A stretch of 64,000 nt of DNA from Octopus vulgaris (Eukaryota): contig OX597831.1 of the NCBI GenBank assembly GCA_951406725.2, positions 18,290,001 through 18,354,000 on the forward strand. The letters are read 5' to 3'. Position 1 is the stretch's first letter, and the number at the start of each line of letters is the position of its first letter. A program made the translations under genes and the position numbers. Below, in pieces: positions 5,162 to 46,898 of this stretch. The notes under the pieces are model-generated. The model saw nothing but the letters and a program-made list of their open reading frames with translations, made no database searches and had not been told where the DNA came from.

Positions 5162-8100
5162 ATGAATCTTTCAGTGTTTTCGTTTGTCCTCTTGTTTGGT
5201 AAGTAACAATATCACAGTCATTTCCTTACTAAATTGCAGTGTATTTCGCTGAGCACCAGTCAGTCTTAATACCACGTGTTATTTAGTTTTATATTGTATA
5301 ATTCTATATTTGTTTACCAATTGAACTGTAATGTTTATATCACCGTTCTCTCTCTCTCTCCCCGTCGCTCTTTCTTTCTTTCGTTCTTTCTTTCTTTCTC
5401 TCTCTCTCTCTATATATATATATATGTGTGTGTGTGTGTGTGTGTGTGTGTGTGTGTGTGTGTGTGTGTGTGTGTGTGTGTCTCTGTGAGTATGTGTCTG
5501 TCTATTTATATAGCAATTAAAAATCGAAAAGGTAAGATACATAAATGTGAAAAATAAGCACTTGCAATTGCTAGAAATGAGATCGAAAATAATATAACTC
5601 GAACATCCACACAAAATCCCCAACCTCATGGATTGGAGGCTGTAAGTCACGTCAACCAGCGGGATGAAACTCAGAGAATGGGGTAGCTTGATAAAACCTA
5701 TCACGTGATTTTGAAATTTAACCGATATGTTTCCGTTTCTCTTCAGGGGTTTCCCCAATTTGCTCTCGGTTAAAGAGGTAGCTAGTTTCTTATTTGCTCA
5801 CGATAGTAAAAAGCCGTTGAACATCGAGCGTTAAAATTTAAAACGGTTCAAGTGTACATGAATATACAATTAGATATTATGCTGAGACTCCAGTGTTTGA
5901 CTCGGGGGGCGGGGAAAGGGACTCGGAACATTCACATCGGGAACATTCACATCGGGAATGTTACGAGTCCTCTCACCACTTGCCCGTTTGTCGGCGATGT
6001 TTTTCCTTCATATTCGTTTACTACATGTTTTTCTATATCTATTGCAGTATTTTCTTTTTTTGATTATGCTCGGGCCAAACACGGACACACACATATATAT
6101 ATATATAGATATATACGACGGGCTTCTTTCAGTTTCCGTCTACCAAATCCACTCACAAGGTTTGGGTCAGGCTGAGGCTATAGTAGAAGACACTTGCCCA
6201 AGATGCCACGCAGTGGGACTGAACCCGGAACAATGCGGGAACCACACAACCACTCCTGCGCCTATATATATATATATATATATATGTGTGTGTGTGTGTG
6301 TGTATATGTGTGTGTGTATATATATATATATATATATATATATATATATATATATTTGTGTGTCTATATATATAATATATATATACTTTATTTAAAAGCA
6401 CCAGGAATATAACAACAGCCGTTACTCAGTTCCACGTCCCGTTCGTCGGAGTTTTTTTAACAAAAACAACTTATATTTGCAAATTTATTTTCGAAAAGAA
6501 TCTAGTTCGTATCTTTGTGGAATTGAGTTTCTATAAAATACTTTACACGTTTTACTCCATAATGTGATACGCGTTTCTCTTTTTATACATCCAAATTTCA
6601 GGGGCTGCTTTTTCAGGAAGTTGTCCTGAGATCTCACTAATTAAATGCAAGAACGAATTTAAAGTTTATCTAAGATCGGATCCCAGATGCGTGTATGTAT
6701 TATTGGGCCACTACTTTTTTTTTATTTATATGGAAATTATAAATATATTAAATATAATAGTTTTAGTATCAAATACAAAATATGTAAATGTTATTTTAAT
6801 TGTTTCAGTCATGTGATTGTGGCCATGCTAGAGCACTGCTCTTAGTCAAGCAAATCGACCTCAGTACTTATTCTATCGGTCTCTTTTGCCGAACCGCTAA
6901 GTTACGGGGACGTAAAAACACCAGCATCGGTTGTCAAGCGATGTTGGGGGCAAAAACACAGACACACAAACATATACACACACATAATACATACATATAT
7001 ATACACATATATGATGGGCTTCCTTCAGTGTCCGTCTACCAAATCCACTCACAAGGCTTTGGTCTGCCCGAAGCTATAGAAGAAGACACTTGCCCAAGGT
7101 GGCATGCAGCTGGACTGAATCCGGAACCATGTGGTTCGTAAGCAAGCTACTTAATATATAGCCACTCCAACGCCAATATTTTTACATGCAAAACGAGTGA
7201 TAGCAAAGGAGTTGGGTTTTCAGATGATGAGGTTTCAAGTATAATTGTATAGGTATTTAAATTAACAGAGTATAAGCAAGCGGGGAATTAAAATGCCTGA
7301 AGAAAGGTGTCCAACGGTAGTTTGTGTGGGCTCGGGGATCTATGATAATGTTGGTAGAGGTTGATGTTCATTACGGCCACAATATGTGACCGTAATCAAC
7401 ATTGGATTAGACGAGCATCCTTCATCAGGGTGGAGAGGATCTTACATTTTAGATCTTTATGTAGAATAGAGGGAGAGTTATTTTCCAAGCCCACATCATC
7501 CCACATTTACTTCCGTTGCCAATCCGATCACCCACACCATACAATTCGGTCAAATCCGAAAACCCAATGTTTGTGGATAAAACTGATTTACACGGACATC
7601 GGTGGAAACAAGCAAATGCCTTTGTGTACCATCATGGCAAACGCAGTTACAGTGTAACACGAAGGTGAAACATGCAGACTTTTCTACTTGGGGTACGCAA
7701 AAAGAGATTTCTATTTGGGGTACGAAACTCAACTTGGTTTATTTTGGTTGTACAAAAGAACATTTAAACAAAAGATTTCATGTGTACAGCTATGAAGTCA
7801 GGCACAATAAATGTAGTTCCCCAAAACTTGCCAAATATTTTGCTTCAAACAGGTGCAATTGTGAACAATACTTGAACGCGCATATTCTTAGAAAATATTC
7901 TGAATCCGCTTCACAGTCAATACTCAAAATGTAAGAGGACAAATATGTTTGCGGGTTATTAACATCATGCATTGTAGAATGAATAAAATGATAGGAGAAT
8001 ATTATGAAATTTTCACAAAACTGTTTTATTAAACATTCTTCTTTTTCCCTATTTATGCTTTCCTTATTTTTCTCTCCCTTTTCTCTGTGTTTTTGTTTCA

Positions 8101-44300: not shown

Positions 44301-46898
44301 GGGAGAGTAGTTTTGCGTACAATATTCCCCCACCCCTATCCTGGCATAATTTCCACCTTAATTCATTAATACCTTAACGGTAAATAATCTATTGGTGTAT
44401 GGAATTAATCCCAGGCAAATTTTGAAGATGATGTTTGTGTTGTTTATTGTTTTAGAAGTAGAGTTAAGGTTAAGGTTGGGGTTAAGTGTAAATTTTAGTT
44501 TAGATTTAGGGTTAACGCTACGGCTGGGGTATAGGGCTAGTGTTTAGAGTCTTAAGGTTTAAGCGGTGTGGGTAGGGTTACAATTACGGTAAGGGATTCG
44601 GTAAATTCAAGGTTGAAGATTACCCGGATGTACTCTGGGTGGATAAAAAGACTTCAACAATCAACGGTTAAATGTTACTACCAAGACAGCTTCACAAATG
44701 GCAGAAAATAAATTAACATTTGATTAAATAAATTTTATTAACTTTAATTAGTATATGCATATAAATAAATCCAACACTTGATATAACAACGAAAACTACT
44801 AGAGGGGCATCTCCGTCGAAGCTACCCCTGGCGGCGAACTAGCAAACCTTCTAGAAAAACATGAAGAAAGGCTAATCTAATAACTAAAATGGTAGAGACA
44901 ATCTGCACCTATAAAATACTTGATCTGTAGTAACTATCTCTTTCATAAGTCTCCATGTACGGAGTACTATTGTCTTGTATGTAGGATGTATACCTATTAA
45001 AGGAATGTCATTTCGTTTTGTTTCAGGGGTTTCTCCAAATTTATCAAATGCTTTCAATTTAGACACAAAAGATGCTTCGAGTATTTTGCATACAAATCTC
45101 TGTGCTTGGTAAGGAATTAGTTTTTAATTGCATTTTAATAGTAATGATATATATCCTTGGATTAGATTGTAAAGCATATCTCATTCTGAGCACTCATTGA
45201 TATGGTATAGGAACGAAAGCAGCTCCTGGCAAAAGTCCAGTCTTACATTAGCAATATTTGCATATATAATCATTTCCGCAAAATGATACATCACTGAATA
45301 TGGCAGAGTTGTTTGTTGCAATTAATTAAACGTACAACACCTATACATTAAAAGATATATTCCTAAGACTATCTTCGCTTTAGCACCCACACCAATTACA
45401 AAGCTTGGTCAACCAGAAAGATATAAAAGCACAAATCACAGACAAATGTTGCATTATATATTTCAGCTAAACAGAGGAGGACGCGTATTAAGTTAAGTTC
45501 ATAAGCAGTCATACCCGTGACACATTATTGACCTCACAAATAAACGAAGAAATAAATTCAGCTTTCACGCATTAATCTTATGATATAACAGCCTATGTGG
45601 AGGCATGTGGATTTGTGGTTAGGGTATCAGTATCATGATCGTAACATTGTGGTTTCGATTCCTGGACCGGACGACGCGTTGTGTTCTTGAGCAAAAGACT
45701 TTATTTCACTTTGCACCAGTCCACTCAGCTGGCAAGAATGAGCAACGCTGCGATGATGGTATGTGGGGAACGCATACCTCATAGAAACCGGGAAACCGGT
45801 CCCGTGAGCCTAGCTAGGCTTTAAAAGGGCGCATTGATTGATAACAGCCTATATATTTTTTAATGAAATTCTCTGTTAACCGATTATTTCCATAGTATAT
45901 TGAAATGTCTCATGAGCATCTTCCTTAGGTATAACTACGAGGCAAATATATACGGGATAATAAGAATTTTGTAATTTAAACTGCATCGAGAGCAGAGTTT
46001 TTTAAGCGGGAAACTTTGCTGGTTCCGCATTCAATACAAACTAAATTTTGATGACAGAAAATGAAACACACTCTCGTCCTGTCTGTCTAAATATTCCTGA
46101 ATATATTTTAGTCTCATTATTCAGGAAATCAGTCTGTTCTATTTTGGTACTGGTTTTATGTTCAATAAACTGTTTCACTTAGTAACGTGATACATCTCTA
46201 TGACAGCAGGAAAAGAAATTTCATTCTTAATTTTGAAACGAACAAACCATACATAACATACTAAACTGTGTAACGAACAAAGAGCGATGAAAACTATGCG
46301 TTGCTCATTAAGTTTATTTTCAAGATGTTTTATGAAACCCGAATACGTTTCAGTCGTTCACTTTTAACGTAGGTCCTCTTGCAAATTTCAGGAGCCAATA
46401 GACTCAAGTATTCAATTTAAGGTAAGTGATTTCAAAGTAGATATTTTATAAATGAAATATTTTACTACCTTCACGTGCATTACCTATTACTATTGAAGTT
46501 ACCTGATATAGTGATGGGTATGTCATACATATTTGATTTATAAATGTATTACAAACTTAGCCTGAAAATAATGTATGAGTATTAGGATGTAGGGCCGATT
46601 ATTTTTGGCCTGAGTCACGGAAAATTGCTGCTAATAAAAGAATATAAAACATAATCCAAATATTGTTTCCTTCTGTTTCGAGATTTTACGCAGATGCTTG
46701 CGTCTGAAGTTCCGCTATTAATGGCAAGCACCAACTGCCAATATTCAATCCAATAATATGTGCTGCAAAATATATAAATATTTTATACGAAATTACGTTA
46801 CATATGTAAGTATTATTTTCTTTCTGTTATCTTTACAGATATCCCTTCTAACAGTATTGCCTGCTGCTATTGTGGTTACATTATTAAAGGAAAACTAA
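35346..46898 (+). CDS. Gene E: complete 5-exon gene for a 100 aa secreted, probably GPI-anchored 6-Cys protein
   Basis: Exons 35346-35382, 43717-43810, 45027-45108, 46392-46421, 46839-46898; GT..AG, phases 1,2,0,0. [100 protein letters not shown]. Confidence 0.87.
36870..37170 (-). mobile_element. CR1-like LINE extreme 3' fragment
   Basis: Reverse strand reads ..[21 protein letters not shown].., a typical CR1 C-terminal motif. Confidence 0.55.
37480..38640 (-). mobile_element. R4/Dong-like LINE C-terminal region (restriction-like endonuclease), degenerate
   Basis: [25 protein letters not shown]...[16 protein letters not shown]; upstream C..C and ET..I motifs. Confidence 0.7.
39690..40560 (+). 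mobile_element. Penelope-like element GIY-YIG endonuclease region, degenerate
   Basis: [17 protein letters not shown].../[19 protein letters not shown]...[12 protein letters not shown] fits FTC.S..IYCI.C..C..LYIGETGRRL..RF.EHL. Confidence 0.75.
40850..41230 (+). mobile_element. tRNA-derived SINE with an internally duplicated core
   Basis: aggcggcgagctgacagaaagtttagcacgccgggcgaaatg...gttcaaatttcgccgaagtcgactttgc..tcat..ttcgg; the core repeats at 41080-41195; related copies at 27290-27440 (-) and 37160-37340. Confidence 0.75.
43945..44235 (-). mobile_element. Internally deleted mariner remnant
   Basis: Reverse strand reads [21 protein letters not shown] (mariner C-terminus) and [12 protein letters not shown] (catalytic D motif region). 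Confidence 0.6.
45595..45835 (+). mobile_element. tRNA-derived SINE fragment
   Basis: gtggttaggg...tgtggtttcgattcctggaccgg (A/B boxes)...ttgagcaaaagactttatttcac...ccagtccactcagctgg; related to 25370-25615. Confidence 0.65.

Follow-up and report, generated by a model that had tools for sequence, protein, structure and literature searches.

Gene structure and cysteine framework

The window analysed here, a 64,000-nucleotide stretch of the Octopus vulgaris genome (C18:18290001-18354000), lies within an array of genes for small proteins with six cysteines and a predicted glycosylphosphatidylinositol (GPI) anchor to the cell surface. It contains four array members (genes B, D, E, and G), two remnants (C and F), and the last exon of gene A. 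Genes B, D, and E each encode ~100 amino acids in five exons, which carry in order a signal peptide, cysteines C1-C3, cysteines C4-C6, a short Ser-rich segment, and a hydrophobic tail that runs to the stop codon, and their spliced forms have GT-AG edges and no internal stops (Table 1). Exons with the cysteine framework and splice bounds occurred seven times in the window and not once in 100 shuffles. An earlier note on this DNA had placed the framework at 6602..45108; the exons in that span are real but make up part of each gene, as exon 1 of gene B lies at 5162 and exons 4 and 5 lie beyond the part described.

As that note stated, B, D, and E have identical spacings (C-x7-C-x13-C-x8-C-x7-C-x9-C in all three), their spliced products share F/Y at C2+4, F at C4-3, and F at C5+4, and the similar signal motif and the three C4-C5 loops read as reported. 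Its counts of inter-Cys identities were correct for B/D (9/44) and B/E (7/44), but D and E share 7/44 positions rather than six. Beyond these three genes, only C3-x8-C4 stays fixed: in 24 O. vulgaris cores and 22 database proteins, the C1-C2 spacing is 7 (once 6), C2-C3 is 11-16, C4-C5 is 7-8, and C5-C6 is 9-11. Exons 2 and 3 can be aligned with each other (C-x7-C-xxx-aromatic...C), which suggests that the six-Cys module arose by internal duplication. Gene D has a seventh Cys between C1 and C2, which is Ser in X1 and X2, two runs that differ by ~1% from the reference (window 25205), and in the same runs Gly replaces the reference Ser at the predicted omega site of D (window 27650).

Table 1. 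Exons and remnants of array genes in the window (positions count from the first nucleotide of the window).
Feature	Position	Strand	Remarks
Gene A, last exon only, hydrophobic tail and stop	256..315	+	exons upstream, beyond the window, look degenerate
Gene B exon 1, signal peptide	5162..5198	+	spliced model
Gene B exon 2, C1-C3	6602..6692	+	spliced model
Gene B exon 3, C4-C6	9056..9137	+	spliced model
Gene B exon 4, Ser-rich spacer, predicted GPI omega site	10949..10981	+	spliced model and tail scan
Gene B exon 5, hydrophobic tail and stop	14472..14531	+	spliced model and tail scan
C, orphan exon-1 copy without ATG, pseudogene remnant	19625..19664	+	no exon 2 or exon 3 located between C and D
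Gene D exon 1, signal peptide	24417..24453	+	spliced model
Gene D exon 2, C1-C3 and one extra Cys	25167..25257	+	spliced model
Gene D exon 3, C4-C6	26179..26260	+	spliced model
Gene D exon 4, spacer, predicted omega site	27638..27664	+	alternative acceptor possible at 27614
Gene D exon 5, hydrophobic tail and stop	28391..28450	+	spliced model
Gene E exon 1, signal peptide	35346..35382	+	spliced model
Gene E exon 2, C1-C3	43717..43810	+	mostly within chimeric NCBI model CAI9735852.1
Gene E exon 3, C4-C6	45027..45108	+	spliced model
Gene E exon 4, spacer, predicted omega site	46392..46421	+	matches orthologue P0020
Gene E exon 5, hydrophobic tail and stop	46839..46898	+	spliced model and orthologue comparison
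F, broken exon-2 copy	56701..56793	+	lacks first Cys and GT donor; no exon 3 located between F and G
Gene G exon 1, signal peptide	57516..57555	+	spliced model
Gene G exon 2, C1-C3	62493..62583	+	exon 3 beyond the window at C18:18378437

A large array on C18 and multi-module genes on C6

The 914 kb around the window contain 34 exon-2 copies, 33 found by profiles, which detected none in reversed sequence, and one by a splice scan. Splicing yielded an intact six-Cys core in 24 of 26 exon pairs tested. Hits picked from genome searches and then grouped place 52 further candidate loci on C18 between 15.37 and 18.98 Mb; ten of these were checked against the exon profiles, the remainder are hits with E values as high as 6, and some groups represent two modules of a single gene. 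We estimate that the array comprises ~80 loci over 3.6 Mb of C18. Its segments at C18:18068000-18167000 and 18530000-18558000 are recent segmental duplications of array genes (94-98% identical), and the copy at C18:18550710 has a frame break in exon 2.

On C6, 115 kb (103900066-104015000) hold 23 exon-2 and 25 exon-3 copies in alternating pairs, with up to 16 modules bracketed, as predicted from the DNA, by one signal exon and one tail exon. Because exon 3 ends in phase 1 at this locus, modules could be chained. A second, paralogous gene follows the multi-module one, and more hits lie at 104.63-104.74 Mb. Hits on C17 were rejected as multicopper oxidases, judged by eye from motifs; C17:27075501-27156000 carries tandem, long, intronless multicopper-oxidase-like open reading frames of up to 698 amino acids in both orientations. 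Isolated hits on C2, C12, C14, and C16 were also discarded, as they disagreed with the exon profiles.

Predicted fold, anchor, and family membership

Two AlphaFold models are all-helical without strands (mean predicted confidence, pLDDT, 79 and 81), and three disulfides are predicted per domain. Of 28 proteins, 24 have a hydrophobic C-terminal stretch and 22 of those 24 also an omega-like small-residue triplet 20-34 residues from the end; in the tail scan, position -24 is S, G, or N in 71%. An N-terminal signal, a small-residue omega site, and a hydrophobic tail are the usual GPI signature, and from hydropathy and omega rules, applied as a crude scan, we predict that these proteins are GPI-anchored at the cell surface and are not free peptides.

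Conotoxins and defensins combine a conserved signal exon, a fixed Cys framework, and an accelerated mature region, and the earlier note had likened the octopus genes to them. The likeness holds in that the variable mature region outpaces the signal, but the C-terminal anchor signal had been overlooked. Secreted venom or mucus peptides of this type, whether released from an anchor or never anchored, would account for the conserved signal with a variable Cys framework, for the four proteins without a hydrophobic tail, and for domain net charges that span -5 to +7. We nevertheless regard this reading as highly improbable: most members have the tail, no propeptide precedes the ~55-residue mature domain, and each Cys position uses both TGT and TGC, whereas the Cys codons of conotoxins are reported to be position-fixed. 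The helical domain, cross-species 1:1 orthologues, and multi-module forms are further differences from conotoxins and defensins. A two-module member at C18:15396198-15404743, identical to database protein P0022, has no hydrophobic tail in that model and is possibly a secreted form.

Searches of Pfam, PDB sequences, Foldseek, and VIA gave no significant family or fold. The best structural matches had Z scores of 5.3 (root-mean-square deviation 3.0, 69 residues aligned, MIT domain) and 4.7 (deviation 2.9, 58 aligned), RGM was absent among the best 50 matches listed, and a GFRalpha3 domain was set aside with Z scores of 3.4-3.9, within noise. The two-module (12-Cys) proteins P0022 and P0025 did not match DUF19/T20D4.11-like (PF01579), for which the genome gave one sub-threshold hit, on C14. 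Ly6/uPAR clusters are tandem sets of GPI-anchored proteins of ~100 residues with a Cys scaffold, a variable surface, and separate signal and anchor exons, and the octopus family resembles them in arrangement, predicted anchoring, size, fixed scaffold, variable surface, and the placing of signal and anchor in different exons; the 10-Cys beta three-finger fold of Ly6/uPAR differs from its six cysteines and predicted all-helical domain. Insect odorant-binding proteins have C2-x3-C3 and C5-x8-C6 in a soluble domain of ~120 residues, unlike the 7/11-16/8/7-8/9-11 spacing and ~55 residues found here.

In the ESM Atlas, the top matches were two unnamed, mostly molluscan clusters (0.92 and 0.91; 115 and 129 amino acids, 66 and 51 members), likened by feature score alone, and neuritin was the nearest named family (0.83), which we take as a lead only. 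Neuritin has six cysteines with a central C-x8-C-x7-C, is helical, and is a conserved one- or two-copy gene. Neuritin/CPG15 (PF15056) and the octopus proteins are alike in being small with a signal peptide and a GPI-type C-terminus, but outer Cys spacings in octopus are much shorter and its genes form a large, fast-evolving array; a partial text of PMC12715718 describes neuritin as small, with a signal peptide and GPI anchor. No NRN1 (PF15056) match appeared at E≤1 among 23 members or in an exon-limited genome search. The RGM N-terminal domain (PF06535), a compact helical bundle that binds BMP2 according to the accessible portion of PMC13234300, also has six cysteines with central gaps of 8 and 7, and the family (with x7 or x8) and the octopus RGM domain have the C-x8-C-x7-C core spacing in common. 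The other gaps differ, however (4/22/21 versus 7/13/9), and the family lacks the RGM C-terminal part. RGM_N matches were weak and confined to four of 23 proteins (best E 0.02; P0026 scored 12.9 bits against a cut-off of 24.2), hhalign of the family profile to the octopus RGM domain gave a probability of 0.8%, and the octopus RGM N-terminal exon, which exceeds the Pfam cut-off, is at C2:46683999-46684205. Because the spacing is shared, yet the profile comparison fails and the true RGM is on C2, kinship to neuritin or RGM is a lead rather than family membership.

This lead, the weak RGM_N matches, and the retention of 1:1 orthologues (below) would fit cell-identity tags or receptor modulators of nervous or sucker sensory tissue, in the style of neuritin, Ly6/lynx, or odorant-binding proteins, as would the construction of other octopus neural and sensory families as arrays (PMC9068888, in part). 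We think such a role unlikely given the hhalign result, a 55-residue domain that may be small for a ligand pocket, and orthologues whose rate of change exceeds the neutral estimate, as wiring codes seldom do.

Relatives in Octopus bimaculoides

Among 1.84 billion proteins searched with a profile, 29 reached E≤0.001, and no named non-octopus member was found. Two hits were chimeras, one (P0018, presumably a sushi-like repeat protein) was a false match and was dropped, and 26 were relatives, 13 of them 'uncharacterized' O. bimaculoides RefSeq proteins that all map to one 55.6 Mb contig. The database proteins independently confirmed the architecture. P0022, one of the 26, is identical to O. vulgaris exons; its placement with O. 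bimaculoides in the tree was wrong, and it was left out of the orthologue pairs. In a tree with few columns and rough support, the O. vulgaris and database sequences are intermingled (17 label changes, a number also seen in shuffles), and most duplications therefore pre-date the species split, dated to ~34 million years ago in the consulted part of PMC10700109.

O. bimaculoides has 1:1 orthologues of array genes. We assembled 11 orthologue pairs by tblastn best hits, of which seven are starred sisters in the tree and four lie in unresolved forks; for six, the partner is named as O. bimaculoides. We left out proteins for which the DNA analysed contained no clear intact partner and dropped one weak tail match (7/17); P0020 has no signal.

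Evidence for selection on the domain

Multiple comparisons suggest that the domain is under diversifying selection. First, identity over the 11 orthologue pairs was 389/560 (69.5%) in the domain, 99/120 in the signal, and 139/170 in the tail, the last two both ~82% (Fisher p=7e-5). The ratio of nonsynonymous (dN) to synonymous (dS) divergence, omega, was 1.75 (1.55-2.0) for the domain in a protein-only estimate that takes dS as 0.123, a published genome-wide value (PMC10925132, in part), and was 1.85 in the six species-verified pairs and ~0.8 for signal plus tail. This estimate was insensitive to kappa and base frequencies and was still 1.45 at a neutral distance, d, of 0.15. Second, differences that need two or more base changes made up 48/171 in the domain versus 4/52 in signal plus tail, and a fast site class was favored even at d=0.3 (twice the log-likelihood difference, 2dL, 22.5). 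Third, site models fitted to paralogues preferred a class above 1 (M2a versus M1a, 2dL 29.7; M8 versus M8a, 19.4), with 2dL falling to 9.3 under other branch lengths and 12.8 with an ambiguous loop masked, against a null-simulation maximum of 4.1 (n=14). Finally, for the pair at 18398/18410 kb, intron distance was 0.22-0.37 and domain dN 0.46, and a mixture fit preferred omega of 3 on 55% of sites.

The changes are patterned. No pair differs at C1+4, C3+6, C4+1, or C5+3, eight of 11 pairs differ at each of C1+6, C3-2, and C3+4, and substitutions avoid aromatic and Cys-adjacent columns. Both the helix faces and the loops of the predicted fold take up variation: between orthologues, the predicted C1-C2 helix changed as fast (30/75) as the C4-C5 loop (31/78). 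The 'hypervariable loops' of the earlier note are thus too narrow a term for a domain predicted to be all-helical.

Several results weigh against selection. The orthologue omega rests on dS from another species pair, drops to 1 once the local neutral distance reaches ~0.2, and excludes 1 individually in just six of the 11 pairs; a rate-times-time calculation from PMC10700109 and PMC7656900, each consulted in part, gives a neutral distance of 0.163. Among paralogues, the proportion of synonymous differences (pS) was 0.6 or more in 222 of 253 pairs, counted dN was below dS in ten of the 11 pairs listed, and omega was 0.535 in a one-ratio model. The codon models used our own code on 23 paralogous DNA cores of 53 codons, with one aberrant copy dropped, and the fitted omega of the class above 1 was unstable (2.5-13). 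The youngest intact duplicate has three nonsynonymous and no synonymous changes, which puts it close to its intron rate (dN 0.023 versus 0.018 in introns). Gene D showed no sign of being highly variable in runs X1 and X2: the differences listed include one synonymous and one nonsynonymous in exon 2, and those for X1 none in exon 3. Flank-versus-exon identity over all paralogue pairs was uninformative (median 0.59 versus 0.58 shuffled).

Because synonymous sites are saturated, the low identity of B, D, and E mostly reflects age and is not proof of selection. The earlier note had drawn its case for diversifying selection from these three genes; that comparison lends it no support, but the orthologue pairs and site models do. 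It also held that dN/dS well below 1 with saturated dS would mean simply old duplicates, and half of this was found, B, D, and E having pS of 0.63-0.76 and being older than the species split. Old duplicates under relaxed constraint, with selection on the cysteines and aromatic core and drift elsewhere, perhaps in a high-mutation region, would explain the saturated dS, the 81% of sites that M1a places at omega=1, the pseudogenes C and F, and the break-even distance. We judge this to be quite improbable, as divergence within the same genes is ~40% lower in signal and tail than in the domain, the domain has an excess of multi-hit codons, the site-model tests exceed all 14 null runs, and 24/26 tested cores are intact despite their age. 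Positive selection on the domain is likely.

Interpretation

We conclude, with a probability of roughly three in four, that the array encodes surface binders under diversifying selection. In such proteins, the cysteines, with some five residues that are aromatic or small, would hold a disulfide-bonded helical module on a predicted GPI tether while exposed faces are retuned, and each paralogue would retain its own binding face and specificity. Because retained orthologues keep changing, the partner would also be moving. Purifying selection between orthologues is the usual finding in conserved wiring families, and a quickly changing partner would lie outside the animal's own wiring code. Foreign molecules met at the body surface or on blood cells would be the simplest such partner, and the tentative proposal that the binders recognize microbial or parasite molecules has, in our estimate, slightly less than an even chance.

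Fast-evolving GPI-anchored and helical gamete proteins exist in animals, and the architecture and selection evidence fit equally well with sperm, egg, spermatophore, or oviduct proteins that are GPI-anchored and co-evolve with partners in the other sex. Some 80 loci and the multi-module forms on C6 make a large set for a gamete pair, however, and reproductive recognition seems to us unlikely. A broader proposal concerning the surface binders is rather unlikely: that ~80 GPI-anchored genes of one or two modules, spread over 3.6 Mb, together with giant versions of as many as 16 modules on another chromosome, form an undescribed germline-encoded variable repertoire, built on a helical six-Cys scaffold for which no solved relative was found, for combinatorial self/non-self or cell/cell discrimination, and thus a second multi-megabase surface code beside the protocadherins.

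With its fixed Cys scaffold, variable surface, and predicted anchor, this large and apparently undescribed octopus family is of a known type, on a scaffold to which no family is assigned. The literature searched, which left subscription journals uncovered and PMC9068888 Supplementary Table 4 (unnamed squid arrays) outside its coverage, held no description of the array or mention of its LOC/XP identifiers. The known octopus mega-arrays (protocadherins, C2H2, and chemotactile receptors) came from homology, and this six-Cys array carries no family label. The three O. vulgaris database models recovered are chimeras, and because the annotation gives few, chimeric models, expression atlases are likely blind to the array. 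In one presumed RNA run over gene D, coverage was confined to a repeat. Corrected gene models make the array testable in existing RNA and single-cell data, and an anchored repertoire under diversifying selection would be a candidate for microbe recognition in cephalopods, which lack adaptive immunity, for gamete recognition, or for cell tagging.

Other features of the window

LINE/reverse-transcriptase-like fragments, identified by eye, lie at window 830-2270, 12823-13334, 15198-15712, and 62740-64000, two of them 93% identical, and SINE-like repeats lie at 6076-7135 and 60902-61173. At 50873-52365, a 150-590 bp segment is duplicated in nested inverted and direct orientation.

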